Shown in pieces: positions 5,774 to 47,616 of a stretch of DNA of 64,000 nucleotides. Position numbers and translations under genes: made by a program. This stretch comes from Neodothiora populina (taxonomy: Eukaryota). Under the pieces are notes generated by a model. The model had not been told where the DNA came from and searched no databases. It saw only the letters and a program-made list of their open reading frames with translations. The stretch's first letter is position 1; every line of letters starts with the position of its first letter. The stretch is taken from assembly GCF_041146345.1 (NCBI RefSeq), contig NW_027191413.1, positions 1,364,001-1,428,000 of the forward strand, given 5' to 3'.

Positions 5774-5933
5774 TGCACGAACGCTCAACGAACGACTAAT
5801 CAAAGGTCAATTAGGTCCTCGTTCAATTCCTCAATCGACAGTCGATGGCTCCATGACGTCTAGTCAATGACTTGCTAGTATAGGACTGATGCATCCTTAT
5901 TGATGTGTTGATAACGACGAGCTTCTTCGTGCA
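5774..5933 (+). mobile_element. Degenerate copy of the TIR + 22-bp-array element (copy 1)
   Basis: Left end TGCACGAACGCTC and right end GAGCTTCTTCGTGCA are imperfect inverted repeats. Internal GTCAATGAC/GTCGATGGC units are present. Confidence 0.5.
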
Positions 5934-6272
5934 TGTAATACACTGCTACCAACTCCTATTCCTATCTGTCCGGAACACGTAAGACCATCTATGTATGCGG
6001 TAGCTCGTACAGACATGTATCGCTCCTTTTGTCCCTGTTCATCTGAGTGGGTCACAAACACCAGAATGGTGTAAAAGTAATCGTCTGGGGTGGGTTTTAT
6101 GCGATCCTCGGTAGAAAAAAGCGAGGATGAAATAGAATAGGCTCGGCCCGCGTTTGTTTATTTTTTCTGTTCTTACGTACAGTACACAGCCATCCATGCT
6201 AGTTGATATGAAGAAGAAGCAAGACATGAAGGAAAAAAGAGACGCCTTTCCCCCCATCCAAGTAGTCTCATC

Positions 6273-7915
6273 TCATAACGCGCGCGAAACAGCCTGTCCG
6301 AAGACTTCATGAGTGGCGGTCAACAGATCGCGTTTATTCGACGAGGATCCACTCGTGCTCGTGAACTGCAGATTGCCTGTACTGCACCAGTTGTTGACGG
6401 GCAGACAAGACAGGTACTTGCACCACGAGCAAGTCGTGTTCCACACGTAAAAGTTCTTGAGCAGCAGGATGAAGCCGACGAGGGCGCCTAGCAGAGCGAG
6501 TGCGCGCACGATCCACCATACCCACCACATGCCTCGTCTGCCCTTGAAGAAGCCAATGGGCTGGCGGATGAAGTTCTGAATGCCTTGATTGGCTGCGTCG
6601 GGAGTCCCGCCCGTGACGCCGGCGACTGACGAGTAGGGCGGCTCGTCCTCGCCGGTGCGTCTACGAAGGGCGTTTGGAGAACGTAGAACACAGACGCCCA
6701 GAACGAGGCCCATGGCGAAGCCGCCGATGTGAGAGAAGTTGTCGAGTCCCGGAAGCAGACCGAGGACAAAAGAGATGATGACATCGACCAGGATGAAGAG
6801 CAGATCTTTGACCGGCGAAGGTCGCTCGCGCCATGTGTAGAGCAGCTCGAGCAGGGTCAATGCCAGGATGCCGAACAGAGATCCCGAGCAACCCGTCGAG
6901 GCTATACCCGTCGCTGCGAAGTTGCCGCCAAGGACAAAGCCGAATATCCCAGAGGCGAAATAGACAAAGAAGAAACGGACTGCACCGATGCTGAGTTCCA
7001 TGTCGCGACCCAAGGTGAGCTGGAGCAGCAAGTTGAATCCTATGTGTACAATGCCTGCATGAAGGAAAATGGGCACGATGAAGCGGAACCACTGATCTGG
7101 CGCGGGCGAGTCGTTGATGCTGCCACCAGGATGCGGGTTGGGGACGCCGGAGAAGCCACAGAGATCACTCAGGGTACAAGAAACACTGTCTCCGGTGGTC
7201 GAGGTGGCATTGGGGCAGGGCCAGCTGATGGTCGTTGTGCGGTTCTGAATGTTTGCCATGTTGTGCATGCAGGGGACGTAACGCGCGCCCATGTTGATCA
7301 AGACGTACGGCGAGGGCCCGATCATGGGATTGAATTGAGGATGGATCTCGATGGGAGATTTGGTGAGAATAGCTGATTGTCAGGTGTCAGTATGTGGCCG
7401 AAGGATTGCTTCCCTGGTTCGAAACTCTCACCATTCTTCACCATCTCGGCGATAAAGACGCATAGTTGAATCAGCGACAGTGTGTAGCAGACCCAAGTGA
7501 TTCGACCACTGAACCATCCCTTCTTCTTTCCACCCGTTGCGGAACCACGATCCCGGCCCCATTTCCGTCGCTGCCTCGGATCTGCGTCTCTCACAAAAGG
7601 ATCGTCGTAGACCGGGGTTATGACAGGGGCGGTACTGGATTGTGAGGAGTGTTTGTAGTTGTAGGGTCGCATGGGCACGTCGTCTGTCTCGTCAAGGGGC
7701 CTTCTCCCGTCCAGCGGCGAAGGCGAGTCTCGGTGATATTCGGTATCCGGGTATTTCTGCTGTTCATAATATGCGGGATACTCGAATCCAGACTCGGAGG
7801 GTTGATGCTGTGGTAGTGCAGGCAGCGGCGCATCTTCTCTGCGGTCGTAGCCATAATTGTTGTTATCGTTGTTGTAGTATGCGTTGTTGCTGCCATGGTA
7901 GTTGAACGACGCCAT
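6273..7915 (-). CDS. Rhomboid-family intramembrane serine protease
   Basis: Motifs seen: QWFRFIVPIFLHAGIVHIGFN, catalytic STGCSG, and LDNFSHIGG. Multiple transmembrane helices. The intron at 7373-7431 joins MVKN|AILTKSPIEIHPQFNPMIGPS. Confidence 0.92.
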
Positions 7916-8751
7916 GTTTGGCAGGCGCTGTTGCGTTGTCACGAGCTTTGGAGTATTACTGTATTACTCTACGGCGGATTGTTTCCTGCTGTCTTGCTCG
8001 GGAATGGATAAATAAATGAATGGAAGAGAAACAGCGAGCGTGATGGTGTTGATGCTGGCGCGTTTGTGGGGGTGGCGGAGGTAAATGGTGGGTTAATGTA
8101 ATGGGGCTCAGCAACAAATACGGTATTGCACCAAGCAATCGTTGTCGTTATGAGAAAGTCAGTGTTTGACGGGCGTGCAAGAAAAAAGCGAATGTGGACC
8201 AGCCACACACGCCTTGACTGTTTGTGTCTTTGGTTGAAGCGGTCAAGTAGGAGAAAGAATGAACGACCGGCAAGATCAACAATGCACGATGGATGGATGG
8301 AAAGACGCCGCGTCAGTCGTGGCTGGGCGTGTGACGACAATAAAGAAAGAAAGATGTGGTGGAGGTAATAGTAGTAGTGACGATGATGAATGAGTGATGG
8401 GTCTGTGGGTAGATACGAGACCAACTAAAGCTGAGCTGCCGATGATGACGGATTGGTATTCGTCGGAGTCTTGTCTCTCTGCCTTATTGTTGTAGTGTAC
8501 AGTAGTGTAGAGAACGGTACCTGTACCTTACCAGGTGTACAATTCTATAAAAGTGTCAAACCACCGCCCAAATTTGCTGCTAGCGACGATCTTAGTCTGC
8601 ACCAAGTAAAGCGTCAAGCGCCGGCCCGAACCAAGCCTCCCATTCCTACAGCTTTTTTGATCCCTTTCCGTGTTCTTTCTTCTACCACTGCTGTGCTGTA
8701 CACTACTTCCCTGCCACTCCGCGTTTCAGCCTGCCGCTGTGCGATTCAGCG

Positions 8752-8968
8752 ACATAGAAGCTCGTTTTTAGGTAGTGACCACCTAATGAATAGTCAATGA
8801 CTGTCTAAGGTACTGAAGAGTCGATGACCCTTTCATGAACGGTTGATAAGTCTTTAATCAAGGGTCAATGATTTCTCAATGACTAGCTGATGACTACTCG
8901 ATGAATTGTCAATAACCCCTTAATGACTACTCCGTAAATGGTCAATGACTCAAACGAACTCCTTTGTA
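8752..8968 (+). mobile_element. TIR + 22-bp-array element (copy 2)
   Basis: Left end ACATAGAAGCTCGTTTTTAGG, right end TGACTCAAACGAACTCCTTTGTA, with an internal RGTCAATGAC array. Confidence 0.65.
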
Positions 8969-9102
8969 CTATACTGTACCTTATCCATTTGTTATCTCGC
9001 ATCCACAGAACGGACTGGATGAACGCACTGATATAGAACACCTTCGGCTTCTCGACTCGATCTAGAACAGAGAACACTGCAGTCGAATGACACGCGTGCT
9101 AT

Positions 9103-9350
9103 TGTACCGAGGAACTCGTTATGAATCATTGACCACCTAGTTACCGGATAGTGATTGTAAACCCATTGACTAGTTATGCATTGGGATTTCATTGCCTCTT
9201 TACTAGAAGTTCGTTGCCTTTTCACTAGAAAGTCGTTGCCTCTTCACTCGAAAGTCATTGCCTCTTCACTCGGGACTCGTCACCTGTTCAAGGGAAACTC
9301 ATCGACCATTTATCGAGAAGTCATTAACTAAAATCGAGTTCCCATGTACA
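9103..9350 (-). mobile_element. TIR + 22-bp-array element (copy 3, opposite orientation to copy 2)
   Basis: Left end TGTACCGAGGAACTCGTTATGAATCA, right end TAACTAAAATCGAGTTCCCATGTACA. Four near-identical 22-bp units (AAGTCRTTGCCTCTTCACTMGA) lie at about 9190-9272. Confidence 0.65.
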
Positions 9351-10220
9351 TTGTCATCGCGTTTGCGATACGACCAGGATCACATTTCTTTGACAACAGC
9401 TATTGCCGTCTTATCGTCGTATTCGTACTATATCTATATTGGCCCCCGAATCACCTTATACCCACTAAAACTGGGGAACCACGTGTGCGACGGACACCAA
9501 CATCTCATCTCCATGTTTCATGCGTCTGATCTATCATGATATCCGTATATTATATAAGGTAGGCAGCCATGTGGTTTATTGACGTACCTGCCCCCTTGGC
9601 GCTGGTCATTGCACAAGTCGTCTTTGTGAAGGTGATCACTGCAACTCCAAGTGAAATTGAAGACCTGAGACAGGTGTCAAACGCCGTTGCCTGCAAACAC
9701 TGAACAGATCTCTTCGCTCGCCTATCTAGACGCTTACAGCCTATTTTTGGCACACGAGAGCTCATTGCCGCTTCGCCTTTCTCCCGATCACCTTACCTTG
9801 CTGTACCGAATCCAAGGTATGCATATAAGAATATGCTCCTCTGCCTAGGTACCTTACCTCTGATGCTGCAATCCTGCACAAACACCGCTGAGCATCACCA
9901 TCGGCTACACTAGTCTACCCTTGTCGTCTATCTTGTCCCCGTGCAAAGTGCCGCTCACACATCATCACTACACACTGCCTCCTGCAATCCTTCTGCTGCC
10001 ACAGGATGAACTGTGCCGACCATCCACGCTTCCTTGGCAGAGACGATCTAACAAAGGCTTAATTAGTCGTGTATTTGTACGAGTACATGACTCTACCGTG
10101 GTGCTTCTCGACCTACTGTACTCTGATTCTACCCTTGTGCCTACAGTGCGAGACATGACCCTCGTCGTCTTGTTACACTTTGCCACTAGTAACGCTTGAC
10201 TTTGTCTTTACCACTGTGCC

Positions 10221-11960
10221 ATGTCGCAAATTAGATCTACAAGTGACACTCCATCATCCGCTGCCAATCCTGCCGCAGAATCTACACAGCACACTCAATC
10301 CCCGCCTGCGACTACTATTACTCACCATACAATCCTCGATCACGCAGCTTCCGCCTCGTCGTCGAGTGATGCACAATCGCGAGGCATGCTGCAGCCAGTC
10401 GTAGAAGACGCCCACCATGGCAGCCCTGTCGACGTTGTAATGTCTTCTCACACTGAATCAACCAAACCCGCTGCGACCGCCGATCCGTCGTCTGAAAATG
10501 ACCAACAACATCTTTCTGCCTCCTCTGTACCTGATCACGGACCTGGATCCGCGCCCGTGTCTGCACCTTCCTCCCCACACGCAAGACCCCCACCCTTGCC
10601 TGTTCAATCGCCTTCGTCTGCGGCACACACGGTCGCCAGTCCACATCACACTGCCAACTCGTCTCCGCGGTCGCCCACTCTCACCCATTTGACCCCCTCT
10701 CCATCAGCAATGTCCAACGAGGAGCCTTTGTCGACGGACACCCTACCCATCCCGCCCGCTCCAGACACCACCGAAGCCGAACAGGCCTTTCACCAGGTTT
10801 TCAACAATCCAAACGCCATCGAGGCTGCTCAGCGCGACGATTTCTCTGATTCAGGTTACTCCGAGAGTGTAGTCCAATCAACTAGCACATCTTTGTCTTC
10901 GAGTGTGAGAGATTTCGAATTCGAGAATGGTATCTACATACTGCGACGCTGCCGTGCTGACTCGCATGCTAACTCACTATCCAGGACGGAGATATCATTC
11001 CTACAAAAGTGGTGTACGTAGAACTGCCTTCTCCTTGTAGGTGACCCAGGACGACACGCTTGCTGACGCTAGATACTACCAGACCTACCTTTTGCCGAAT
11101 GACGACGCGGAGAACGAGCGGGAAGACATGAAGCATGCGACAGTACTTACCGCCTGTGGTCAGCAATTGCATTTCGCCCCGTTGGACGTAAATCAACCAC
11201 AGCAGACTCGTGTCCTGGACATGGGCACAGGAACAGGCATATGGTGTGTGGAGATGGCGGACAAATATCCTTCAGCCGACGTCATTGGCGTGGACCTCAG
11301 TCCTCATCAACCTGACTGGGTACCGCCGAACTGTCGCTTCGTCGTAGACGACATCGAGGTAGAGTGGTTGCATCCAGAGAACCACTTCGACCTCATACAT
11401 GCTCGACACATGGCTATCGCAATCAAGGACTGGGACCACGTCCTCTCGTCTGCCATGGCTGCATTGAAACCCGGAGGGTTCATCGAATTCTGCGAGTTCA
11501 GCTATATGCCTGCCTCCGACGATGGGACTATGACTCCCGACAACCAGCATCTACACTGGACTACTCTAGTGCGCGAAGGCCTGAGAAATGTCAACGTCGA
11601 TCTGCACTCTGCCCTCACGCTCAGAGCAAAAGTTGAGCGGGCCGGATTCCAGAACGTCGTGGAGCATATTGTCAAAGTCCCCATTGGCAGCTGGCCTGCG
11701 AATCAATTGTTGAGGAAAGTTGGTATTTATATGCATGCAGTCCTCTACGACGGGCTTCAAGGTTTGTTCTTGTCATCTCCTCGCTGCCAATGACAGTCAC
11801 TAATTGCGTCCAAGGTATCGCCATGGGTCCGCTCACCAGAGGCCTCGGCTGGCGACCGGAGGAAGTGGAGCTTCTTCTTCCCGGCGTCCGCAAGGACATA
11901 TCAGATCCATCGATACATACTTACTATTCCCTGCATATCATTTACGGACAAAAGTCATGA
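10221..11960 (+). CDS. LaeA-like / TAM-domain SAM-dependent methyltransferase with a long Pro/Ser-rich N-terminus
   Basis: Motifs seen: SLSSSVRDFEFENG|RRYHSYKSG|TYLLPNDDAENERED, VLDMGTGTGIW, GVDLSP, VPPNCRFVVDD and LKPGGFIE. Introns at 10930-10984, 11014-11082 and 11762-11814. It ends YGQKS*. The true start could be ATG 10710. Confidence 0.9.
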
Positions 11961-12970
11961 ACAGATTGGATTGTCACGCTAAACGCTCCGCTCCTTGGCC
12001 AGCCTTGTCGCGGCCGTACGCAAATTTGCCATTCCGTCAAAGGATCCGGAGCAGCTTCCTATCACACTAGGGACTATACCGACGGAGTTCGCCAGTGATG
12101 GCGCAAGATCTTGCATTGCCTGTATTGGACCGAATTGCCAAGGACCTCATGCGCGGATGTCATCTCACGACAACGCTCTGGTGTAATTACGCCACCCATC
12201 GGACGGCGCAGCCAGAACGAGGGCTCATAATCCTGAACAAGATCATGTCTGCGTCGCTTAGGCGATGATAGCACACACAACCTCGGTCCGAAGCAGTGCT
12301 GCAGCACTTCCATATTGAGTTTATGTAGCGACCGAGCGCTACAGGGCTTTACAGGGTAACTCGCGGCCGGGGCCGGGGTGAGCCTGTGCGTATCTCGGAT
12401 TTCTCACCTGTTTTGCGCATGGACCACTATGTAAATTGCGGGGCCAGCAGCAGACAGGACAAGCGCCAACCCAAAGCGAGGAACAAGTCCTCCTTATCGC
12501 GTGCGAATCACACTATCGAAACCACCGTGTCGGGTCCCTCATGAGCACATGTCGCTATGTTCTATGCCGCGCTATGTGAAAGTACACTCACACACTATAT
12601 TGACATGCGGGCCTAGAGCGCGGGCTGCGTGCTGCTCAGTGCCTCCCACGCGAGTGCAGCTTATGGTACCTTGGCCCCGTACTTTATGCTCTTGGCCATC
12701 GATTGTCAATCCCAATCGTATCACGTACATACGTGGGATGCGCATCCTACTTACTCTCTGGCAAGCTCTAACATTCGTGCATTGTCCTGGAGGATCTGTT
12801 TCTGCGTTTTATGCAATGTTTGTAGGACGATCGCAAACAATTTCCAATATACATTGATTGACAATCCTTGTTCGATCAGTACCATTGGGACGGGTCCTCT
12901 ATCCTCAACCTCTCACAAACGCGACAGGCATCACGACTGGGTCAGAACGTGATCTCGGACCCCACGTGGT

Positions 12971-14782
12971 ATGGCGCCGGTTCCATCTCCTTCGTCGGTC
13001 TCTCGCCTAAGTAGGCTGTCGGAGATCATTTCTCGCAACTCGAAACTTCTCAATTCCTATTTGATCGACAAGCAGCTTCCACAACCCAGCTTCGCGATCG
13101 ATGCGCCGACGGATGGCATCGTCATCGACAAAAGTGCGCAGAACAGGACAGAATTGGAACATGCCAGGAGAGAATTAATCAGCGCGACAAAGGAGCTTCA
13201 CGATTTGAGTGTTGGTCCTCGGGAAGGAGTTAGAGATTTGGCATGGCGCGTAAGTACATGCTCCTCTACGTTGACTTGGGATGCATCTCTCCGCATCTGC
13301 TTCTATCTATTGGCTCATGCTCCCAATGGTGGCATGTTACACACGTACCCCAAGCTTCGTCGAGTCGCGAAGGGGGAAGACCTGGATTCTCTACTTGTGG
13401 ATGTCCGCGTACATGCGCGAGTGGGGACCGTCACCAAGGGTCCCTTCGCCATGGCTTGACAACCTCATTCGGGTAGTACTGTATGCTAGCGGAAGAGATT
13501 GTTGATGGAAGGAGGCACCCACACAGTCACCATTCATATAATCACAACACACACGATGGGCATGCTCCTGAGCCTTCTGTCAGCTTACCCATTCATCTCC
13601 CAATAGTTCAACGATCAACTCTCGCTACACTTCATCTATCGCTTTGGGATTGCTTCTGCATTCGAGCCTGGAACAACAATCACATTCTCTGAGCTCGCGG
13701 CTCGTACGAAGACGCCATTGCACGACCTCAAACGCCTCGTTCGTCACGCCATCACGAATCGGATATTCTCCGAGCCCACCAAGAATACTATTGCGCATAC
13801 AGCTACCTCGGCGTTGCTCGCGCGCGACGAAGATACTCAAGCATGGGCAGGTATGACGCTCGAGGAGTTCTGGCCAGGTTCGACAAAGACGGTTGCCGCC
13901 ATGCAGAAATGGCCTGGGTCTCAAGAGCCCACGCAGACTGGACTCTCCTTAGACGTTGGCGAGGAAAAGGGTCTCTGGGACGTTGTCACATCGTCGCCGG
14001 CGCGGATGAAGCGATTCGGGATTGCAATGAAAAGCTTGTCTGAGGGCGAAGGCTTCGAGATTACGCATCTGGTCAATGACTATGATTGGGCAAGTGTAGG
14101 AAAGGCTGCTTCGTCAACGGCGGGAGACAACAGCAGACCAAAAGGCACCGTCGTCGACGTTGGCGGCTCGTATGGTTACGCATGTGCTGCCATTGGTGCT
14201 AGATTTCCTCATCTGGACTTTATCGTTCAAGATCTTGCTCGCCTCTATGCTCACATTGATCCCATGGAAAAAGTCCCGGCAGAGATGCGCGACCGCATAA
14301 GTTTCTCCGCTCATGACTTTTTCAACGATCAAGACCCCACTGAAGTAGGCCATGCAGATGTATTTTTAATCAGATGGTGCATGCATAATTGGAGCGATAA
14401 GTATGCCATCAAGATACTACGAGCACTGGTACCCGCATTCAAGAAAGGCGCCAGAGTAGTCATCAATGACGGTGTATTGCCCGAGCCCAAACCGCTCGGT
14501 GGTAGCTGGACAAGCTCTGCAAAGCTCACTCATGATGCTGCTGCTGCTGCTGCTTCTGATAAAATCGGTACGGAAGAGGCATCCGAGGACGTAGACGCGG
14601 ACTATAGGTCCGACAAGAGCATGCGCGACATGGATCTCATCATGCTCCAGGGTCTCAACGCACGAGAGCGCGATCTAGGCGAATGGCAGGACTTGTTCCG
14701 CGCCGCGGATGAAAGATTCGTCTGGAAGGGGGCCAGGCGGAGTGGACGCATGTGGGTCCTCGAAGCCGAATGGAGCGGATGA
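12971..14782 (+). CDS. O-methyltransferase (fungal Methyltransf_2, OmtA/COMT-like)
   Basis: Motifs seen: VVDVGGSYG, FIVQDL, AHDFF, RWCMHNWSD and NARERDLGEWQDLF, plus an N-terminal dimerisation region. A 357-nt intron at 13250-13606 joins DLAWR|FNDQLSLHFIYRF. Confidence 0.9.
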
Positions 14783-15016
14783 ACGCAGGTGCAAACTTGA
14801 CTTGAAACGAGGATTCGTCGACCCTCTACTTGTCTCGTCAATGGCTTTTGTTTTGCTTTGCTCTATATCTCACCATCCTCAGGGAAGTGGCTTTTTCGCG
14901 CACATGGTTTGTCTCTGCCATAGCCATCTAGTCTTTTGAAGATGAGCTTCTTTCTTCTACGCCTCGCTGTGCTACTTTGCTCTATTTCGCGAGATTGTCC
15001 GCCTAATCACACACTG

Positions 15017-16236: not shown

Positions 16237-16724
16237 TTTGGTCGTGGAGAAAGAGCAATAGTGGATATATATATCTAGAGTCGTAGTCGTCTTTCGAGGA
16301 AGAAAGGAGACTCTGCTCACAGATCTGGATCGAACACCGCTCGTTGCTGCGCTGGTGCTGAAGATCCTAGATGCGTAGAATGGTCGCTGCAGCAGGGGGG
16401 GCATGGATCAGGTGGATTATAGAATTACAGGTCGCTTATGCGTACTCGATAGTAAAAAGTACGCGAGAGAGGGAAAATGACGGATGAGAAGAGATACTTG
16501 ACTTGGTCTGGCATGTCACTGCTCTTACCTTCGATATCTGCGATGCGCGGCTATGTGTGGTGCGCTGCTGCTCCACTCTCTCAGCTGCAGTGATGGTCCA
16601 TTATACCTTACGCAAGACGTTAGAGTGCGCCGTGTGGATATGACACTGCGGCGTCATGATTGGCTCGCTCCGCAATCGAGGCTCCCGGGGCGTTGTTTAT
16701 AAGCACCTTGATGGCATAGCACAG

Positions 16725-16968
16725 ACGCAGGGGAGCTCGTATTTTGGTCAATGATCCCACAATGAATATGCATTAGCTCCTCACATGAATGGTCTTCTAT
16801 TCTTCGAAGACTCACTAATGACTGATCAATGATTCCTCAATGAGTAGTGAACGACTAGCGCGTGAATGTCAATGAACCCTTGACGGATAGTGAATGACCA
16901 CCTGCACCCAGTGAATGGTCAATGACTGCTTAGAGAAAAGTCGATGACTAAAAACGAGCTCCTTTGTA
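16725..16968 (+). mobile_element. TIR + 22-bp-array element (copy 4, best-preserved TIR pair)
   Basis: Left end GGAGCTCGTATTTTGGTCA matches the reverse complement of right end TGACTAAAAACGAGCTCC(TTTGTA). Internal TCAATGA array. Confidence 0.7.
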
Positions 16969-17167
16969 TATCGATAATCAGCCCTGGTTATTTGGAACAT
17001 ACGCACCTTTACTCTACGGCCTACGACGTGATCATAAGCAGTCCGTGTTTCACATATCATGAAGGTCAAGATTCGTGATTCATAAGTCGTCATGTTCAGA
17101 TGTTTTTTCTACCGCACGCATGTACTAGCTAGAAACTCATTTCCAAAAAAAAAGTGGCTGGTGCAGC

Positions 17168-21106: not shown

Positions 21107-21389
21107 TACAAAGCACCTAGTCTTTAGTCATTGACATCGAGTAGTCATCAGAAACTCACTGACTATTCATCAGGTATTCATCAGCCATTCACTAGGGACT
21201 CAACAGCTATTTAGCAGAGAATTCAGTAGCTCTTTATCAGAATTTCAGTAGTTATTCTTCGAAGACTCACTGACCGTCCATCAGAAATTCAATGACTAAG
21301 GTAAGGTATTCATCAAAACCCTCATTAAGTTTTCATCAGACTCCTCGACCATTTATTAGAGTCATCGACCAAAACTGAGCTACCTTGTA
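21107..21389 (-). mobile_element. TIR + 22-bp-array element (copy 5)
   Basis: Left end TACAAAGCACCTAGTCTTTAGTCA, right end TCGACCAAAACTGAGCTACCTTGTA. The internal array of TCATTGA/TCATCAG units is in reverse orientation. Confidence 0.65.
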
Positions 21390-23889
21390 GTCCACAGAAG
21401 CAGTGGAACAGCTCTGATATGCATCCGGCGAAGAACATCTGCATTGTCTCCAATATTCAGGCCTCATATTCAGCGGATGTGACATAGCTTGTTGGGAGAA
21501 CAGTGTATTCTTGCCTGAGCATTGACGGCGTTCATCTCGTGTATTCGCCTTTGTCGTCGCTAGATCTCATTTCTGAGGCTGTGAAGAACTACTGGCTGGA
21601 TGTGCAAGATCATGTCTGAGCGGCTACTTTACTCGATCTCAAGATCATTGAAGTCAGCGGCTGCAATGCAGCTTTGGCATTGATAGTGTCTCTCGCTCTC
21701 TCTACAGCGGTACCGGGGTTCGCGTGTAAGATGGATGGTGCGCTCTCCACGTCCAGCGTGTCTCAATGATTAGTACTGATCTTGGGGAAGGAAACCACAA
21801 CATTTGCAAGAGGAGCACATCTGATTCCTGACGCAACGCATAGAATGAAGTACCGTGTGTACCGTAGATTACCTTACTCTACTGTGCGATGTAGTCGGGG
21901 ATATACTGACTCAGGGAAGATACCTACGGGTATGTGGGTCCTGCTGCCGTTGCTGCTCGTGACTCGACCAAGCAGCGCTACACTTTCGTCTGTCTTCTCC
22001 CCCAATTTTCCCCGTACATACTTGTTGTTTACTATATCCCTTCTTCTGTGCCATTAGTCTTGACCAAAATTTCTATCTTTACACGCTTTAGCCCATTCGT
22101 TCCTTTACCCCGCGGGACCTCTCAGCCCCTCCTCGTCCGATTCTCTGGCGAGCAGGCTGCTGCAAGTTCACAGTACAGTACCTGTAACATTGACACCTGC
22201 ATCCCACAAATCCTGGTACCGTGCGTCTTTGTTGAGCCTTCCGCATCTCACCTGAGGCGCTGCTGCAAGCGTCATATATTGCTATCTTTGGATTACCAAG
22301 TACCTTACAGTAGCAACAAAGGTTGGAAATCCGATGTCCGCCCTTCTCCTTCAGAAACGCACGTTTCAGAGCACTGCATGGAGAGTCATGACCCATCTTG
22401 CCTTGTTTTGGCCATTGCATCTATTACAATTCAACCGTACACTTGCACTTTTTGTGGACCCCCGGCCTCCAAGGTCAATAGTGCGTAAAAGCTCTATAAG
22501 CACGAGAAAAGACTGAGTGGGACACCAAATGATATACCAGAAATAAACACCGCGTACATATCGAACGAAGGTCGGTATGACCGGCTGAATGTTGAATGAG
22601 CTGATAGGCACCGGGTAATTGCTGACGGACTTACTGCCAATTGCAATTCGGAAGTACGCCAGATCTTGGGGGAAGGGTAGAGCAGAATGGAAACATGCAC
22701 GCTGACTCCAACACAAGTGTGCATCTTCAAGGTATATGTTGTTGATATACTTAGCGGTGCATTTCTCCACACTGCTTTTGTTTTGAGTATAATTGTGGAG
22801 GAGAAGCTCCCTCGCCCCCTCTCTGGCCCCAGAAGAATAGCAAACAAGGATTATGTGATTATTGAGCAGATACAAAGTGAAGATTAGTCGACAACTGGGT
22901 GGACGCCACATGCTTGTTCAATGAAGGCTCAGCGAAGAATTGAACATACTGTACGTCGAATGAAGAAATTGCATGAAACCCAATGCGAGTCGAACCAAAG
23001 TCATATAATAATAGGGTTGGGTGAAGTTGGGTGAAGGCTCGCTCCCCCCCTCTCTTTCTCCCCCTCGCAATCCAGGGTCCGGCGGTAAGCCAATCCCAGT
23101 CTGTCAATAACTGGAGGCTGTTGGTCGCTTGCGCATTCCATATCCCCCTAATTCCAATCAACCACCCCGATCGCCGACTCCCGCTTGTTTGACATTACCT
23201 CGTATACGGGATATCTGTACAGCAGAGTACTGTGCAGTACAGTGCAGTCCAGTCCAGTACCTCTCTACCTTGTCTAATAGCAGGGTCATCTTATCACTCT
23301 ACCTTAACCCGTCGCTCTCAATCCCATAAATCTTTTCATTCGCACTTAATCGCACCTTTGGCACATGCTGTCGTCATCCCAACCTGCTGCACGCTTCCTT
23401 TGCAGGCTCACAGCCGAGCTCCAACACTCGCTGCTCTTGCACCCCGACTAATTCCACCGATATAACATCACTAACGTCGCCATACGCGAGCTGAACGACA
23501 GAGACAGCAACACCATTGTCCCTGTTCCATCTCCAAGACCATCATCGTCATCATCATCATTTCCTTCAACAGCGTCCTCGCCATCAACCTCGCCACTCCT
23601 TTAACCTAGACAAAGCTTCACCGCACCACCTCCTTTAATCACTTTTGGCAGGCACGCGTGACTTGGACAGCCTCCACGCATACCTTACCTTGTTCTACGA
23701 TCAAATCCTACCTTCTTCGCCCTCCGCGAATGCCATTTCTCACGACTGGGACTAGTGCCCAGGCCTAATAATCACGATACCAGACCAAAAAACACGTCGT
23801 CTCTTGGATTTGACACCTAGCTGGCATACACTGCCTAATAGTCATCTGCCTCACGAATATACCCCAATAATAAAACAAAACACAACAAC

Positions 23890-35177: not shown

Positions 35178-35326
35178 GGTTGTGTTGCGGACCAATGGCT
35201 TGTGAGGTCCGGTGGTGGTGCTTTTGGTATAGCCGGATGCGCTTCGAGGTGTGAGGTTCCCATCACAAACCTTGGCATGGTCATCAAATCTGCCAAGACC
35301 GGCTTGATCTATATGGGTCTGTATCT

Positions 35327-35504
35327 CACAAAGGAATTGTTTTTGCTCATTGACCATTTACCGGACAATCATCAGAGACTCATTGACTAGGTATTCATTG
35401 GAACTTGATTGACTGTTCACTGAAAAGTCATTGACTTCAACTAGAGGGTCATTGCCTACCTGTTGATAAGAAACTCATTGATCATTCATTGAGGAGTCAT
35501 TGTA
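35327..35504 (-). mobile_element. TIR + 22-bp-array element (copy 6, right-hand TIR missing)
   Basis: Left end CACAAAGGAATTGTTTTTGCTCATTGA is followed by a TCATTGA array with 11/22-bp period. Confidence 0.55.
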
Positions 35505-35646
35505 CTTTACCTATGCTCGTCATTTGCACAAGCAGCTATGCAGCCAGCCACAGAAGCGGGAACGATCTCGGCAAGGACCGCAACAGACGACGAGGCTCTG
35601 TCCAAGTTTCCAGGTCAGCCAAAGATCGGGGCATGTGAGACCTTGG

Positions 35647-35989
35647 TACACGAGGGGGCTCTTCGTGTTTAGTTAATGACTTCTCGAAGAAAGGTCGACG
35701 ACTTTTCAGTGAATAGTCGGTGACTTTTCATTGAATAGGCGACAAGGCTTCAGCGAAGAGGCAATGAAATCTTAGTTAAGAGGTAATGAGTTTACATTAA
35801 TGAGGCAATGGATTTCTAACGAACAAGTAATGAGTTTCTTATAAATAGGCAATGACTACTTGGCGAATGGTCGTTGACTTGTCAATGAATGGTAAATGAC
35901 TTCTCGCCGAATAGTAGATGACTCCTCAGCGAATGGTATATGACCAGCGTATAATGGTCAATAAAGCCTTGGTAACTCAAGCCTTTGTA
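35647..35989 (+). mobile_element. TIR + 22-bp-array element (copy 7, longest, ~13-14 units)
   Basis: Starts TACACGAGGGGGCTCTTCGTGTTTAGTTAATGA and ends CAAGCCTTTGTA. Example units: TAGTCGGTGACTTTTCATTGAA, TAGGCAATGACTACTTGGCGAA, TGGTCGTTGACTTGTCAATGAA and TGGTAAATGACTTCTCGCCGAA. Confidence 0.7.
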
Positions 35990-39220: not shown

Positions 39221-41217
39221 GATTTTTTTCTTTTCCTTTCTGTTCATTGGTATGCAGTAGAAAGGAAGACTTTATGTGTATGGTTGTGTGATGTGCTTCA
39301 GGAGGAAGAGAGAGGGGGGGCGTGTTTTCTTTTTCTTTTTCTTTTCTCACAAATGTACGATTCTCTCTTGTCAGACAATGAAAAAAAAAACCTCCATCCC
39401 ATCTCCATTTATTCATGTCTCTAGCTATGTCTCTCTTTTCACGCGTCTTTCGTTTCTCGTTCCTGTCTGAACATCTCCTCTGTTTGCCTGTTCTTTTTTC
39501 CTTGAAATGTTCAGCTATCTATCTCGGACAAGGCACTCCCATCTACAGTAGACTCAAGGGCAGAACCAATGAAGGAAACATTGAAGGAAACAATAAAAGA
39601 CAGAGAGAAGAGAATGAAAACCACGACATACTACACATTATATGAAACATTCCATGACTCTATGAGACGAATAAAGAAGGACAGGAGGGCGAGGAAGAGA
39701 GACAGATCGGAACAATACTATCTGCTTCGGAGACGGAGAAAAGAGAGTCGACAGAGTAGTTCTTTGGCTCTAGCTAGATACGGGGTTGATCAGAAAAGAA
39801 AAGAGATGAGACGAGGACTTTATGCTCACGATCAAAGCCAAGTCCCATCTTACTCGGACGTCAAGTTCAACTCAAGTCGACTATCAAGTCCAACTCAAAA
39901 AGTCGAACGTCAAGATTGAGGTGAGAGGTGAAAGTCAAGACCCGAAATCAAGGTAAACGTCCCAACCAAGTCCGAGGCTGAGATCAAAGCGAAACGTCGA
40001 GATACGAGAAGACGATCAACCAGGTGGCGGCTTCGCCCCCATATAGACTGCGCGCAACGGTACGAGATCAGAAAGCATGCCAATCACAGAAAGAGAAGGA
40101 CCGTCGATGACGAAGAAACAGAAAGGACGGCGATGCTACCATGTCTTGTCTCATTTCACCTTGTCTTTGTCCATAGACTTATTAAGTCCTAGAAGGTAAA
40201 ATAAGGAAAGCACTATAGACAGCAAGATAGACAAAAGCCTGGACGGAAAGCATATCACCTCTCCCAGATCGTCAAATAACAATGTAACAATACAGTGGGA
40301 AGAAGGTAAGAGAGAGCGGGGGCCCGATGTGTAGAGGTACCTTACCTCAGAAAAATAGATCATCTTGGGAAGGTACAGTACGGTTTGGTTCACGGTCATG
40401 ATTGGGTTTACTGTGACAGTGGGCATTCAGAGGGAAAACAAGAGTGAGGTTTACCATGATAGTTGGGTTTTACAGTGATAATGAGCATCAGAATTGAAAA
40501 GGAAAGGGTGGGTTCGTGTGTTGGTTACCTTACCTTACTCTTGTCTCCTACTGGACTACCCAAGGTACCTTAGCTCAGGCACTAGGTGTACTGACTCGGG
40601 CTTTTCTGCGCCCTCTTTCTCGAGGAGAGTCGAATCTAGCCTTCGCTGTCGCGTCTGCATAGAGCGCTTTTCGATTCACTTCTCGCTTGGATCAGACGAG
40701 ATTTCTGGTTGTCTCGGTCTTTCGAGCTCTTCTCTCGTTTTTATCTTCTTCTTCGGTTCTTGTGGGCAGAGAGAATTTCCATGTCTTGGGCAAGGTAGAA
40801 TGAATAGAAGAAAAAAGGGCTTCGTTTCGGGAACAATTATATCAGCCTTTTTCCTTTTCTTTCTTGCTCACTTCCTCTCTCTGTCTCTCTCTGTCGTCTT
40901 CTTTTTCTCCCCCTCTCTCTCCCTTGGACTCTTTCTCTCAATCTTGCTTACTAGTAGGCGAACTAATAGAAGAACGAAAAAAAAACAAGAACAAGGGTTT
41001 CTAGGTTTGCGCATGTTGATGTGGGCGTGTGTGTATGTATAAAAGTGATTTCTTTTTTGTTCTTTACATTTCTCTCCTTCTCAGCCTCTCTTCCCTACTC
41101 GAAAAACACCTCCATCGTTGAGGTCGGAGAGGGTTGTTTCACTAGTTGTACAGAGCGCAGGATAAATTGGGGGGGGGGGGGTTCGCTTTCATTTCGGGAG
41201 GATTATTGAACATTTGT

Positions 41218-41796
41218 CTATGCTGACTCGGTGCTCTTGAGCCAAGCTTCGAGGTCGAAAGAAGGAGAGCTGAAGTCGGTGTTGGCTGGGAAATGAAGGG
41301 GTCAGCATAAGGACGCTTGTGCGGTTCGCGGGGGGTGCGACAGAGACAGGACAAGGCGGCGATTCGACACGGGCGCGCGCAGTTTTCTGTGCTCAGAAGG
41401 ACTGGAATGGCGTGGGAGAGGCGGAGAGCGAAACAAGATTTTGTCCTCAGACGGGCAGAAACATACCACTCGACTTGGACGACGAGTCCTTGGGGGCGTT
41501 CTTTCGTGCAAACTCGGCCTTTGCCTGGGAGATCAGGGACTGCTTGCGCTCATACTCCTGGGCGTTCTCTCTGAGCTTGTCGGCGGCGGAAATGGAGGCC
41601 TGGTGGGAGAAACCGTAGGCGACACCGAGAGCGAGCGCTGACCAGCGGAAGACCTGGGAAAGATTGTTATCGACACGTTCAGCGCCGGGCGGCGGCGGCG
41701 GCGCAAGTGAATTGACAGACGCAGCGACACGAGACACCGAGTCAATTGACTTGAAGGACGGACAGAGAAACGTACGTTGACACCGGTGGAGGTCAT
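41218..41796 (-). CDS. ATP21: Mitochondrial ATP synthase subunit e (Atp21/Tim11)
   Basis: Reads MTSTGVN|VFRWSALALGVAYGFSHQ...EYERKQSLISQAKAEF...SS|ANTDFSSPSFDLEAWLK, with a GxxxG-like TM segment. Introns at 41654-41775 and 41286-41466. Confidence 0.88.
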
Positions 41797-42696
41797 TGTG
41801 AATTTGTCAAGAGAGCTTGATTCCTCGTGAAACAGGGCGACAGATGGGGAGAATTGACGAGCGCTATCTATCGCAAGTCAAAGAAGAGGAGGAGGAAAGA
41901 GGAGAAGAGAGGAAAAAAGGGTGGATCGGTATTGCTGGTTGAATTGTACAGAGGAATGGGAGGAAGTACAGGTAGAGTAGAGTAAATGGCAGCAAAGCAG
42001 TCTTTGGGGATTTGGCCTTCTGCGCTATTGCGGCTCCCCTTCCTGGCGTCACTATAACAATAATACTGCACAGCTACACTATCACTAATTACTACTTTCT
42101 TAATACTCTATTCTCTCTCTCTCTTTTCCTGTCCGTCTCTCTCTGCCCCAGCCTGAGCTTCTTCTGCCTCCGTTGGCCGCCCGCCCGCCAATCAACCCAT
42201 CAAGCGAAGCAATCCACTCCAGCGACCAACCAGATACAGCTACGACACTCGCACTCGCCATGTCGGAGGCAGGATGCCGGCTTTCCCCGTTCTTTCCCTC
42301 TTTGCATGTCTTCCAGTGTTTGCACCGATTGCATCTCACTGCACAGGTCGTGTTTGCATACACTTATACACTTGAACACTATTGTTGATACATGTCTTAA
42401 TTATACATGCGAAGCTCTCGACGAACAATACATTACCTCACCTCGTCGTCGCCATATGTCTTCACAGCAATGAGAACTAGCTTCCTCTTCCTGTCAAAAC
42501 AATCGCCCTGTACTCCGATCAATTCCAAAAACAGAGAAGAGCTTATCAGGACGAGCAGCAGGTCTGCCTACCTCTGATACTAAAACATCTAAGCTTGCTT
42601 TGTTCATCCCGACGCTTGCAGCAGCAGCAGCGTTGAGCCATCAGTCGACTATCGAGCACAGAGAGGAGAGACTGGAGAAGAAACAAGAAGAGCAAG

Positions 42697-44784
42697 ATGT
42701 CTTCCTCTCTCCAGGCCCGCAAGGAGGAGATCCTGGCCAAAAAGGCCAAACTCGCCGAACTCAAGCGACAGCGTGAACTACGACAGCGCGAATTCAGCTC
42801 TCATCGATCGAGCGTGGGAGAAGGATCAGACATCCCTTCGCCCACTCCATCCCGCGCCAACAACCGCGCAGAGCTCGACAGCTTGATCTCGAGCCTCGTA
42901 GATCGACCGGGCCGCGAAGATTCACCGCGCAGTCGTCCCAATTCCCTCATCAGTCTAAGTCAGCAGAGCTACCAGGAAGGCGCAGACAGTCCCATCCGCC
43001 CGAGCACCGGCACTCTGTCACCTGCGCCCCTGACTACCACAGCCACGCAGACATTGGCCTTTGCACCGCTGACCACCGTCTATGATCTGCCTGCCTCGCC
43101 GAAGCAGCAGGTCATCACTTACAGCAAGGCCGTCCAGACCTCCGACGACTGGCCCGCCGAGAGACCAAAGACCCGCGATCACCAGTCCGCTTCCGAGGAT
43201 GAAGACCCTCCGACGCCCTCGCGCACCCGCAAGCGTTTGAGCAGACGAGAAAGAGAGCGCGACGAAGAGCTGAGACAGAACATCCGAAAAGAGATCGAAG
43301 ATGAACTGGCAGCTCTCAAGTCGTCAGAGCAGGACACGAAGCCGGAAGGCAAAAGCAAAGAGAACTTCCCCGCCCGCACTCTGACCAACGATGAGCTGAA
43401 CGCCGTCACCGCCTCTGACGACTTTTTCGATTTCGTCGAGCGCTCCACCAAAGTCATCGAGAGAGCGCTGGACGAAGAGTACGATGTTCTGATAGACTAC
43501 GCCATGAGAGGTCTGGGCGGCCTGGACGACGATGACGACGACGGCGGCGGCAACACGCGCACAAAGAAAGGCCGTCGCATACGAGAAGTTCACCAGTTTC
43601 AGGACGAGCGTTGGACCAAGGGTCGAATGATTAGTGATCTCGACTACTCTCTCAAGTATCCCGAACTGCTCTTGACCTCCTATACCAAATCTGCCGCCTC
43701 TGCACAGAGTGCTCGAGGCCTGGCTCTGATATGGAACTCTCACATGCCATCTCGACCCGAACACGTCTTCGCCGCGACAAGCGACATTCTGACTGCACGC
43801 TTCTCTCCCTATCATCCAAGCTTGGTGCTCGGGGGCACTTATTCAGGTCAAGTGTGTCTCTGGGATATCCGACAGCGCTCGCATGACGGTGCCCCTGTCC
43901 AGCGAACCCCACTCGCCGGAGAAAAGGGTGGTCACGCCCATCCCATCTACAGTGTTGCAGTCGTTGGCACACAGAATGCCAGCAGTATCGTCAGTGTCAG
44001 CACAGACGGCACAACTTGTGCCTGGACCTTTGACATGCTCTCGAAGCCCCAGGAGTATCTCGAACTCATGTCACCACCTGGCAGGAGCCGGACTGACGAC
44101 ATTGCTCCCACTTGCATCAGCTTTCCTCGCTCTGACCCTACATATTTCCTGGCCGGCACGGAAGAGGGCAGCATTGTTCCTGTGCATCGTTATGATCGCG
44201 CCGGTGCGAAGGCAGGGGTCGATCTCAGCGTTTTGTACGGTGGTCACGCTGCACCTGTGACCGGTCTCGACTTCCATCCCAGCAAGGGCAAGGTTGATCT
44301 TGGAGATCTGGTCATCAGCTCTTCGCTAGACTGGAGCGTCAAGGTTTGGCGTGTCAAGCCACCGAGCACAGCAGTTGCCGACAGCGTCGTGCAGGCCGAG
44401 CGATCCATCCTCGACATTATGCGTGAAGACGTCGTCTATGATGTCAAATGGTCACCGACAAGACCAGGAATCTTCGGTCTTGTCGACGGTGCCGGCAGAT
44501 TGGAGATTTTCGATGTCAATGTGGACGTCGAGGTGCCTGTCGCTCGCGCCGAGCCCAGCCATACCAAGGGCGATGTCTTTGGCATTAAGAGTCTGAACAA
44601 GCTTGCTTGGGACAATAATGACGGAAAGAGAGTAGCCGTCGGCGGTCTGGACGGCATTGCTACAGTCTTCGAGGTCGGTAGTGATCTGGGTGGACCAGAG
44701 GTCAACGCCAAGGGAGATGACTGGATGGGCATGAAGCGTCTTGTGGCGAGACTGGACAAGAGCAGAGAGTCTGATGGACGGTGA
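42697..44784 (+). CDS. nudI: Cytoplasmic dynein intermediate chain (WD40; NudI/Pac11)
   Basis: N-terminal coiled coil QARKEEILAKKAKLAELKRQRELR, ITYSKAVQT, DFVERSTKVIERALDEEYDVL, and WD repeats (GGTYSGQVCLWD, SSSLDWSVKVW, DVKWSP). Single exon of 695 aa. Confidence 0.93.
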   Translation: MSSSLQARKEEILAKKAKLAELKRQRELRQREFSSHRSSVGEGSDIPSPTPSRANNRAELDSLISSLVDRPGREDSPRSRPNSLISLSQQSYQEGADSPIRPSTGTLSPAPLTTTATQTLAFAPLTTVYDLPASPKQQVITYSKAVQTSDDWPAERPKTRDHQSASEDEDPPTPSRTRKRLSRRERERDEELRQNIRKEIEDELAALKSSEQDTKPEGKSKENFPARTLTNDELNAVTASDDFFDFVERSTKVIERALDEEYDVLIDYAMRGLGGLDDDDDDGGGNTRTKKGRRIREVHQFQDERWTKGRMISDLDYSLKYPELLLTSYTKSAASAQSARGLALIWNSHMPSRPEHVFAATSDILTARFSPYHPSLVLGGTYSGQVCLWDIRQRSHDGAPVQRTPLAGEKGGHAHPIYSVAVVGTQNASSIVSVSTDGTTCAWTFDMLSKPQEYLELMSPPGRSRTDDIAPTCISFPRSDPTYFLAGTEEGSIVPVHRYDRAGAKAGVDLSVLYGGHAAPVTGLDFHPSKGKVDLGDLVISSSLDWSVKVWRVKPPSTAVADSVVQAERSILDIMREDVVYDVKWSPTRPGIFGLVDGAGRLEIFDVNVDVEVPVARAEPSHTKGDVFGIKSLNKLAWDNNDGKRVAVGGLDGIATVFEVGSDLGGPEVNAKGDDWMGMKRLVARLDKSRESDGR

Positions 44785-45326
44785 ATTTTGTGTGCCTGTG
44801 TCTTTTCTCTTCGTTGTGCTTTTTGTGCAGCTGGCGATACCGTTGATACCCCCTCATCCTCGTTCTCTTTTTGTACCGGTATATCGCCTTTTCCACCCCC
44901 ATTCGACTCCAAATATATACCCTTTCCCCCTTTTTCGCTTCTGTCCCACTATGACTCGTGTTGCACTCCTCGACATGAGCTTGCTGTACTCGTAGCTCTG
45001 GATTGTAATTTCCCACTACTTCCACAACAGTAGCTGAGACATGAAAGAAACCCCTTGCTTCAATGGACAAGTCACGCGTTTGTTTATGATGTCGGAACAT
45101 ATTCCTCCTGTGTCAAATCTATACACAACCTAGCTGACCTTCATTTCCCGACCTTCGCTACATATGTCCGTTGTTTTGTTATTTGGTGTCATTCCGCCAA
45201 GTCACTCTACACACTCTTTTCTTCCTTCCCCCTTTACTTCCATCTCTTTCGCTTCCCTCTCGATTGAATCTCCAACACACCAGCATCTCTACCTCTCCGC
45301 GTGCGTGCAGGATCCAGACATAGAAT

Positions 45327-46359
45327 ATGAAACCCTCCATCGCTGCCACCTTGGCATTTATCGCGCAACTAGCTCCTTTTTCAAGCCTCGTCGCGGCTCA
45401 GCAATCCACTGCTGCTGCTGCTGCTGCTCCATCTCTATTCTTCACATCTACGTCTTCTGTTGTTGTTGCTGGGCAGGATGCTGTGTTGGGGTATAGCGCG
45501 AGGGAGCTGGATGTGCCCGTTACTATCACTTTGCGTAAAGGTGATCCGAGGAGTTTGGAGACGGTTTCTGTTTTGACTGGTGAGTGATTGCTTCCTTGTT
45601 TTCCTCTTTCTCCCCCCCCCCCTCTCTCTCTCTCTCTTTCTCTTTCTCTTCTACCTAGACATTACTCCACCACTTCCTCAGATACACCCTCTCGCTATCG
45701 TCGAGAAGGTCATTTAATAACACGAACCTGCAGAAACCGCAACAAACGGCACCTGGACCTGGCAAGACCCCCCTTCGACACTCATGAACGCTCAAGACTA
45801 CGCTTTCGAGATCCAGCAGGGTGATGAAGTCAATTACTCTGCTGGGTTCAGTTTTACTGGCGGGTCTAACACTCCTAGTCCTCCTACTACTGCTGCTTCT
45901 TCATGGACGCCTGCAGAAGCTGGGTATACAATTACAACAACAGAGCCCTGCTCGACTTTAACGCAGACTCATGCGCCTGGTCGCGGTGTTAATGTGCCGT
46001 TCTATCCTGTAGTCCGGCTCAATGGCACGAATGGGACTCTTGGGACCGGAACGGGAGTGAGTCCGGGTAGTACGGCGACGGTGATTAATCCTGGTGGACC
46101 GATTAGGAATGCGACTCCTTTTTTTGTGCCTACTACTGCTTCTGCTTCTTCTTCTTCTTCTTCTTCTTCTTCTTCTTCTTCTTCTTCTTCTTCTTCTCCG
46201 CCAGGCGCTGGTACCACTTCTTCTCTTCTGGGAAGTAGTACGTCTGGGCCTGGTGGTGTTTCGTCTTCCGCCGCTTCTGCTGCTGGCGCTGCTAGATGTG
46301 GGTTGTTCTTCAATGTCGCTTTGCTCGTATTCGTGGGATTCTGGACAGGAGGGAGATGA
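45327..46359 (+). CDS. Secreted, probably GPI-anchored Ser/Thr-rich cell-wall protein with a Kre9/Knh1-like N-terminal domain
   Basis: Signal peptide, then VTITLRKGDPRSL...|ETATNGTWTWQDPPSTL...DYAFEIQQGDEVNYSAGF (intron 45580-45733), an S/T-rich stalk and a hydrophobic C-terminus. Confidence 0.8.
46141..46197 (+). repeat. (TCT)n coding microsatellite encoding poly-Ser
   Basis: About 17 consecutive TCT codons. Confidence 0.9.
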
Positions 46360-47434
46360 GGAGGAGTTCGCTGGGAATTTCGGTATTATTTTCTTGGGAG
46401 TCTTAGGTGTCTTTTGTAGTATTTGAAAGTCCGAGGGAAAGACAGAGAGGGAGTGAGCGAGCGAGTCATAACACAGAGAAGAGGAGTGATACCAAAAGGG
46501 GGGATATACTTCTTGGACGATGACGGCTTCGGTCCTTCTCCTATTGTTTTTGCTATCCTCCTTTTTCATTCCTTTTTCACTTTTCCTTCCCTTTTCTCTC
46601 TCTATAGTATGGGTGGTCCTTGTATGACCGGAATCGACGTAATGCTTCTATCCTCATTACTATTCCTAAGTTTCTGACTCACTGTCTCTGTTCACTTGAA
46701 GCATATATCCACGCTTGTCATGTCTGCACTTAGTTGTAGTATCTACACTTATCCATCGCATGTACTGTATATTTATTCATCACTCACGCGTTTCTATGGT
46801 CGTCTCCTAGCAGCGAACCACTCTTCCACTGACAAAACCCAGAGCTAGAGAATCTCACAGTGGGCACTAGAGTGATACTGCTGTATCTTACTGGACTCAC
46901 ATATAAATTCACAGTAGTCATTTCTGTCATCATGTATATGAGACAATCACTTCTCAGTCCCAGTCCACCAGTGAGGGCAGCGACATTGCCCAGAGAGAAC
47001 ACAGGAGATAATCGGCAGAGAGGACCTCTCTGTCACAGACCTCCTCGATACCCAGCCTTTAACACAGCTTCAACTTGAGGACATGGGCGATTACTTGTCT
47101 TTAATTGTCAGCAACGACACAACTCATGATCACGCGTAGGCAGCGCTACTGGCAGACTAGGTCTACAGGGCAGATGGCGTGAATATAATCGATACAAGTC
47201 CAATGCTGAACAGCAAAATTTATATAGCTGATATGAAGGGTACGCACCTGGACTCGGCCTTGCAAACAGATCACAGTATCCACCTCAGGTCATGGTTGAC
47301 CTTTCCAAATGAACCTGGTATGACGCAAAACGACTCTAGTTAGTGCATCATCATCATCATCATCCATCATCATCATCATTATTATCATAATGGTGTATAC
47401 TGTACTAAGCCAAGGCAAGACAAAGGCTGCCAGA

Positions 47435-47616
47435 TACAAACCAGCTCGGTTTTAATGAATGGCCCTCTGTTGAACAGTCAACGGCTGTCTATTGAGGAGT
47501 GAATGACTCTCTGTTAAACGGTCGACAAGTCTCTGATGAAAGGTCAATGATTTCTTGATGTTCAGCTAATGATCGCTCGGTGAGTATTCAATGAAATAGG
47601 AACGAGCTCTGTTGCG
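47435..47616 (+). mobile_element. TIR + 22-bp-array element (copy 8)
   Basis: Left end TACAAACCAGCTCGGTTTTAATGA, right end TCAATGAAATAGGAACGAGCTCTGTTGCG. Six to seven 22-bp units, e.g. GGTCAATGATTTCTTGATGTTC. Confidence 0.65.

Follow-up and report, generated by a model that had tools for sequence, protein, structure and literature searches.

The 64,000-nucleotide stretch of the Neodothiora populina genome analyzed here (contig NW_027191413.1, positions 1,364,001 to 1,428,000; hereafter the window, C6:1364001-1428000 in an assembly of 23.96 Mb in 18 contigs designated by C labels) carries genes of eukaryotic housekeeping types, namely rhomboid, phospholipase D, LIM-RhoGAP, symplekin/PTA1, dynamin, PEX6 and kinesin (Pfam, 43 open reading frames (ORFs) scanned). 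Between the genes lie copies of an element that has terminal inverted repeats (TIRs) as its boundaries and is filled with an 11/22-bp periodic array, eight of which had been reported by a first-pass annotation. The family is an old non-autonomous DNA transposon of a fungal genome, that is, a MITE (miniature inverted-repeat transposable element), and its unrelated lineages cluster in common chromosomal domains, which is its most unusual feature and goes beyond the first-pass view.

All eight copies were present at the positions reported, with offsets of at most 1–2 bases (Table 1), and an array detector, whose training set included some of these window copies, recovered 8/8 loci and gave 0 hits in 10 Markov shuffles. 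The 11/22-bp periodicity was borne out as well: at lags of 22 and 11, identity reached 0.50 and 0.40, respectively, compared to a shuffled mean of 0.26 (maxima in 500 shuffles: 0.31 and 0.30). The 16 reported ends were scored with a TIR profile that drew on 34 ends from elsewhere in the genome but took the first-pass consensus as its seed. Of these ends, 11/16 exceeded the 99.9th background percentile and 3 more the 99th only, whereas two failed, at 5774 (left) and 35504 (right), the latter in agreement with the remark that the copy at 35327 lacks its right-hand TIR. Copies occur in both orientations, and none overlapped the Pfam-matching ORFs among the 43 scanned, as had been claimed for coding sequences. 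The units, which were described as unidirectional, are so mostly but not wholly (766 vs 222 unit matches by direction), and the range of ~5–14 units per copy became 3–13 by scoring and 5–13 by length. The copy at 5774..5933 gave no match at E ≤ 0.1 to the family model (R1) that was used to scan stretches and loci. The copy at 16725..16968 has a sister on contig C2 (86% identical, support 99/98) and a folding z of −3.7, dominated by the TIR stem; a search for structured RNA gave 0 Rfam matches. The copies at 8751..8968 and 9105..9348 are ~135 bp apart, opposite in orientation and of different lineages. In addition, a relic at ~54800–54930 is probably a ninth family copy, missed in the first pass (family-model match at 54806-54873, E = 0.012; 2 scored units).

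Over the genome, 23 matches to the TIR pattern were found vs 0 in the control, 82 vs 36 for a looser TIR pattern, and 188 vs 1 for the array pattern (100 of the 188 were listed, complete only for the part with ≤1 mismatch). Since the ≤1-mismatch list held 48 elements and recovered 18/36 elements of three fully scanned regions, the genome total was estimated as ~96 copies, or ~one per 250 kb; the density of one copy per 8 kb proposed earlier thus applies to this region, not to the genome. Kinship analysis of 68 elements gave an assignable relative for 27, with 13 members on 7 contigs in subfamily A and 4 members on 4 contigs in subfamily B, and a genome-wide BLAST search with one subfamily A member returned 11 loci, none of them new. 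In an alignment of 12 subfamily A copies, the elements were collinear from TIR to TIR, shared common irregularities and differed by block indels (81–91% identity to the consensus, 76% pairwise), whereas the flanks of 10 copies showed identity at chance level (0.24–0.25), indicating that whole elements were copied to new sites. Whole-element transposition, TIR to TIR, has therefore occurred to unrelated sites on many chromosomes. The 23 copies with two TIRs span 117–553 bp (18/23 within 181–283 bp) with variable unit number, and five further elements have the same TIR head as the array family and no array (Table 1). TIRs, a short non-coding body and a dispersed multi-copy family with unrelated flanks are among the features that define a MITE, and the first-pass suggestion of an old non-autonomous transposon family is upheld by the collinear subfamilies, their spread over many contigs, their divergence from the consensus and the array-less sisters. 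Three copies enclose unrelated gene-like inserts (C4:1032252-1032547, C4:1037125-1037862 and C16:1178970-1179650), which resemble Pack-type capture; the two tested were both single-copy in the genome, and one insert frame had no Pfam match and only Atlas matches below 0.9, with no link to a transposase found. Short or one-ended copies at C15:278972 and C3:1795003 lie within ~170 bp of sequences that look tRNA-like by eye.

The distribution of the elements was strongly clustered. In the 48-element list, 56 pairs were 2–100 kb apart compared to 9.0±3.0 expected (maximum of 23 in 5000 simulations), whereas pairs 100–300 kb apart showed no excess (14 vs 16.6 expected). No family elements were found in 20 control stretches of 10 kb, which were picked at round coordinates away from listed matches and hence are no random sample, nor did the complete ≤1-mismatch list place any on C13, a contig of 2 Mb. 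In the three clusters scanned, 15 elements belong to 13 lineages, 13 to 12 and 8 to 7, respectively. The nearest relative was in the same cluster for 4/27 elements vs 2.8 expected at random, indicating that the clusters are not expansions of single founders. Copies of subfamily A were ≤60 kb from a non-A element in 8/13 cases vs 1.5 expected (0/20000 simulations), and its well-supported sister pairs join C2 with C6 (99/98) and two sites 2.85 Mb apart (97/95); adjacent sister pairs were seen at C4:1032052/1037677 and C6:1430186/1433836. Independent lineages have thus recurrently been targeted to, or retained in, the same domains of ~85–95 kb. These domains are gene-dense and contain core genes, and comparison of 28 cluster with 20 control stretches showed no difference in GC, CpG, CpA, TpA or long-ORF cover (P = 0.11–0.99). 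An arrangement of one cluster per centromere finds no support in the contig layout, and the clusters are not one per chromosome, as C6 holds two and the telomere-to-telomere contig C8 has matches in two separate areas. A second set of short repeats, 50–225-bp mosaics at C6:83470-139780, is confined to the 77–160-kb domain of C6, one of them beside a family copy.

The interior of the element is related to its own ends. Among 187 unit spacings in 29 elements, 139 were 22 bp, 6 were 33 bp and 8 were 44 bp, and the longest arrays run to ~21 units in one direction, filling the whole element. Each 22-bp unit consists of two related 11-bp halves (r = 0.73), of which half A shows both self-complementarity (r = 0.76) and a match to the inner ten columns of the ~29-bp TIR (r = 0.91), indicating that the interior is the inner palindrome of the TIR repeated together with a degenerate partner. 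As 11 bases are about one helical turn, the sites would be lined up along nearly one face of the helix. In subfamily A, to which the substitution test with its modest power was applied, differences between copies were fewer in the motif cores than in the spacers (84/788 vs 180/1053, P = 9e-5), whereas private substitutions were not (30/788 vs 49/1053, P = 0.42; TIR 34/558), which suggests constraint while the elements were mobile and neutral decay afterwards. C>T changes had no CpA bias (43/402 vs 44/351, 21/187 and 19/160), showing that repeat-induced point mutation left no trace.

The ends of the element were evaluated in 68 strong cases, of which 58 start with T and 65 have A next, with no conserved base beyond the terminal TA. 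Outside the TA, G/C was found at position −1 in 48/68 ends (P = 9e-4) and a pyrimidine at −5 in 51/68 (P = 4e-5), two positions chosen post hoc from 12; such a bias beside TA fits a TA-centred target preference. Target duplications of hAT and Mutator elements are 8 bp or 8–10 bp long. In the 23 two-TIR copies, no exact duplication of 4–10 bp was found outside the TA, and exact duplications of 2 and 3 bp occurred in 1/23 each with a mean match near random (for 6 bp, 0/23 and a mean match of 0.22 vs 0.25 in random pairs; for 8 bp or 8–10 bp, 0/23 and 0.23–0.28 vs 0.24–0.25). According to the portions of the reports available, elements of the IS630-Tc1-mariner (ITm) group generally duplicate TA, IS3EU elements have TA..TA termini and a 6-bp duplication (PMC10045372), and PHISTA elements duplicate TA in fungi (PMC12730594). 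The present family has the TA..TA termini of IS3EU without its 6-bp duplication, and TA at both ends without any longer duplication as in ITm elements, which argues against the IS3EU type and fits the TA duplication of ITm. We infer that the TA is the target-site duplication. Strong matches among sequencing runs came from one sample only, possibly the source itself, with no RNA run among the holders listed; run X2 has joints that skip introns and a single contig across 5774–5933, to which no weight was given. Metagenomes scanned for the exact TIR yielded 0 matches.

An autonomous partner with the same TIR, which the first-pass annotation had proposed to look for, was not found among the transposase loci fetched. 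The genome was searched for eleven transposase and recombinase families, with counts that are lower bounds: DDE_1 4, DDE_3 3, hAT 1, Tc5-HTH 10, DUF3435 one locus and rve 1 weak match, the last without family TIR or array nearby. MULE and DDE_Tnp_4 had 0 matches, blanks that do not prove absence, and KDZ, piggyBac and Transposase_1 had 0 matches here and likewise in control genomes, so that these blanks are uninformative. The loci found comprise two young pogo elements that form a pair, derivatives of pogo, an element of IS630/Tc1 type whose TIRs measure 200 bp, a relic of hAT and a captain of Starship type. Their ends either differ from those of the MITE family or are lacking, and the TIRs of the pogo and IS630-type elements in the genome are unlike those of the family. 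One weak TIR-profile match (13.9 bits) lay inside a pogo element whose own TIRs differ, and two weak TIR matches 9.6 kb apart on C6 had no element between them. The young pogo-type pair (1810 bp, 99.6% identical) is at C6:2875-2877 kb and C14:1010-1013 kb, and a 775-bp pogo derivative has three copies of 98–99% identity (C16:219 kb, C17:958 kb and C14:1597 kb), indicating recent activity of families other than the MITE. At C18:32757-35804, adjoining a WD40-repeat gene, we observed a 3.05-kb element whose ~200-bp TIRs (90% identical) run into two convergent ORFs, one an open IS630/Tc1-type transposase frame (DDE_3) and the other a 366-codon frame of which two scanned pieces had no Pfam match. 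The DUF3435 gene of Starship captain type is at C4:1189556-1190921, ~25 kb past the last listed C4 family copy; a Starship origin was rejected, as this locus has no family TIR or array within 8 kb around.

The best overall explanation, which we regard as probable, combines an old MITE, mobilization of ITm type, a TIR-derived array and clustering in domains. An ITm transposase probably acted in trans, inserting the elements at TA and duplicating it, and this enzyme would since have been lost or have diverged too far for detection. The interior is a tandem amplification of the inner 11-bp palindrome of the TIR plus its degenerate partner, with 11/22-bp blocks gained and lost. The units may well be extra putative transposase-binding sites, about one per helical turn, retained as an aid to mobilization; this rests on analogy with the internal direct repeats in TIRs of fungal Tc1/mariner elements, as given in the accessible text of PMC2836289. 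After mobility, the copies have decayed with no detectable selection on the motif. The domains would have been targeted for insertion repeatedly, because of chromatin, 3D proximity or transposase bound to resident arrays, and would not be the product of retention alone, which we favor slightly and consider the least secure step. As for the cause, targeting by chromatin or 3D structure in which the array plays no part is possible. A self-attracting (‘homing’) MITE, whose helically phased, TIR-derived array holds transposase on resident copies and so captures incoming elements of any subfamily into the same ~90-kb domains, is a more speculative and rather doubtful cause; it would be the reverse of target immunity, with a fossil map of it left in a compact genome of a fungus.

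Several points weigh against this explanation. Family TIR and array were absent at the fetched DDE_1, DDE_3, Tc5-HTH, hAT and DUF3435 loci, for which a lost parent may account, and 108 ORFs of ≥150 codons beside one-ended or long copies included no transposase family. None of the contig joints among sequencing runs skipped an element, so the first-pass check for empty sites yielded no such site and the TA may belong to the element itself. Membership of the Tc1/mariner group, which the ends were noted there to resemble, is plausible from the TA ends and the lack of other duplication, with neither empty site nor partner transposase found. The contrast between cores and spacers is partly circular, as core positions were defined from data including the same copies, and could also have come from homogenization within arrays. 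Unrelated transposase loci were mildly enriched near the family (5/15 within 60 kb vs 1.95, P = 0.034), favoring general permissiveness over specific targeting. Finally, 41/68 elements had no assignable relative, which for those elements leaves room for ancient local hopping.

Four alternatives were considered. The same MITE might have been moved by a non-ITm enzyme, such as a PHISTA-like relative of PIF/Harbinger that duplicates TA, IS3EU, hAT or some group not yet described. It is typical of hAT and CACTA elements to carry multiple subterminal binding repeats, and no ITm partner was found in the genome, both of which count for such an enzyme, as do the TA..TA termini of IS3EU (PMC10045372) and the TA duplications of fungal PHISTA elements (PMC12730594) in the text available from these sources; we consider it unlikely, since the 6-bp (IS3EU) or 8-bp (hAT) duplication is missing in 23/23 copies, DDE_Tnp_4 and MULE had no genome matches, and neither TIR nor array is present near the one hAT match or the one rve match. 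Regarding placement, insertion may have occurred everywhere, with survival mainly in low-recombination or tolerant (e.g. pericentromeric) domains and the array irrelevant. Such passive clustering is quite possible, if not our preference: the enrichment of transposase-domain loci near the family is mild but in its favor, as are the short local repeats that form a second set within the domain at C6:83-140 kb and, in the available part of PMC3227409, the co-clustering of several MITE families in Epichloe gene clusters. On the other hand, the domains match the controls in composition and ORF cover, contain core genes and are not one per chromosome, and array-less sisters lie ≤60 kb from an array copy in 1/5 cases vs 8/13 for subfamily A near other elements, a difference that is not significant (P = 0.15).

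The clusters could also have formed when single founders hopped locally long ago, the resulting clouds then being scrambled by array turnover. Two adjacent sister pairs, on C4 and C6, point this way, cluster members are mostly unassignable singletons, and within ~50 kb the secondary jumps of Sleeping Beauty depend on distance and on contact in Hi-C (PMC13607698, available text). The nearest relative is, however, outside the own cluster for 23/27 elements, both supported sister pairs of subfamily A join distant sites, and each scanned cluster has nearly as many lineages as elements, so that local hopping is improbable as the general explanation. The least probable alternative is a domesticated element, considered already in the first pass (insulator, replication origin or protein-loading array), which would label the domains for some protein of the host, perhaps one of transposase origin. 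Helically phased palindromes and sharp domain limits would suit it; yet motif cores are not depleted of private substitutions, TIRs decay at 34/558, and the distribution is patchy, with no matches in the control stretches or, in the ≤1-mismatch list, on C13. In relatives, to which the first pass had wished the search extended, the family model gave 0 matches at E ≤ 1 in 80 dynamin-neighborhood loci of other fungi (920,394 bases), which are distant (dynamin identity at most 83%) and keep the WD40 neighbor in ten cases and the PTA1 neighbor in none, so that no orthologous site is among them. Domestication is thus very improbable.

In the literature searched, with Dfam/Repbase and supplements outside the comparison, neither this family nor any fungal MITE made of TIR-derived 11/22-bp repeats was described; the family, apparently undescribed, behaves like a Tc1/mariner MITE and is plausibly one. 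A deposited consensus may exist. The closest system is miDNA4 of Xenopus tropicalis, a Tc1/mariner MITE with a variable internal satellite array (PMC12628747, PMC9659126; partial texts). Both are TIR-bounded non-autonomous elements with a tandem array of variable copy number as interior, and arrays are left free where copies have lost their ends. The miDNA4 monomer is, however, proposed to be a captured pre-existing repeat, whereas the unit here is the TIR's own inner palindrome, and the 11/22-bp period, the fungal host and the copy number of only ~100 also set the present family apart. Among fungal elements, EFT-5m, EFT-9m and EFT-14m of Epichloe festucae (PMC3227409, as far as its text was available) are old degenerate MITEs of 140–540 bp with TA ends of Tc1/mariner type, 62–70% pairwise identity, no parent found and several families co-clustered, and in kind they resemble ours. 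They differ in having no described periodic interior, a distinction made by description and not by consensus sequences, and in that their clusters are secondary-metabolite loci amid nested transposons, whereas the domains here are compositionally ordinary and hold core genes. Elements of Fot1/pogo type (Trem, Aft1, Tan1 and Pot2) likewise insert at TA and have internal direct repeats in their TIRs, but with two 17-bp repeats each instead of up to ~21 units per element (PMC2836289, in the part available).

Mobile carriers of internal tandem arrays also include Helentron/DINE-1-like and Foldback (Tetris) elements (PMC9659126, PMC12628747; available text). Foldback/Tetris was rejected as the identity of the family, as its arrays are mirrored in long TIRs, whereas here the array is one-directional and the TIR short. 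Helentrons have subterminal repeats, a 3' hairpin and conserved sequence beyond the repeats; this identity was rejected as well, because conservation ends at the terminal TA in the 68 ends.

As a MITE family, the element is mainly one more repeat annotation. Two features go beyond that. Its interior, derived from the TIR's own palindrome at helical-turn spacing, would be a clear example from nature of probable transposase-binding sites being amplified by a MITE, for which the only printed analogue found, judging from the available texts, is the captured-satellite case. The other is that independent lineages reach common domains of ~90 kb, which have sharp limits and consist of ordinary gene-dense DNA. 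Should these domains be explained by maps of Hi-C contact, centromeres or recombination, the family would be a ready-made fossil reporter of nuclear organization steering DNA-transposon targeting in fungi, and if arrays truly attract insertions, a new targeting mechanism would be at hand.

Table 1. Family copies in the window (window positions), array-less sister families and scanned clusters (contig positions)
Feature	Position	Strand	Description
Degenerate MITE copy	5774..5933	+	Left TIR decayed, right TIR head kept; units scored: 3; neighboring genes convergent
MITE copy	8751..8968	+	Both TIRs; 8 units; nearest relative on contig C16
MITE copy	9105..9348	-	Both TIRs; 8 units
MITE copy, subfamily A	16725..16968	+	Right TIR identical to first-pass consensus
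MITE copy	21107..21389	-	Both TIRs; 7 scored units
MITE copy	35326..35504	-	Without TIR at 35504 end; 6 units; nearest relative on contig C16
MITE copy	35647..35989	+	13 units, longest array in the window; both TIRs decayed
MITE copy	47435..47616	+	7 units; clear left TIR, weak right TIR
Probable ninth copy, very degenerate	~54800..54930 (approximate limits)	-	Between PEX6 and kinesin genes
Array-less MITE family, ~87-90 bp	C6:1588021-1588110, C15:690402-690488, C2:32147-32232		70-77% identical
Array-less MITE family, ~285 bp	C5:492797-493086, C5:829113-829387		84% identical
Cluster	C16 1125.8-1219.6 kb		13 elements, 12 lineages; 0 in remainder of 150 kb scanned
Cluster	C6 1351.5-1434.4 kb		15 elements, 13 lineages; the window's own region, 114 kb scanned
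Cluster	C6 76.9-160.2 kb		8 elements, 7 lineages; 110 kb scanned

Outside the MITE family, the window also contains an inverted pair of 40-bp sequences at 22536-22575 and 45148-45187, which are 73% complementary and 22.6 kb apart.

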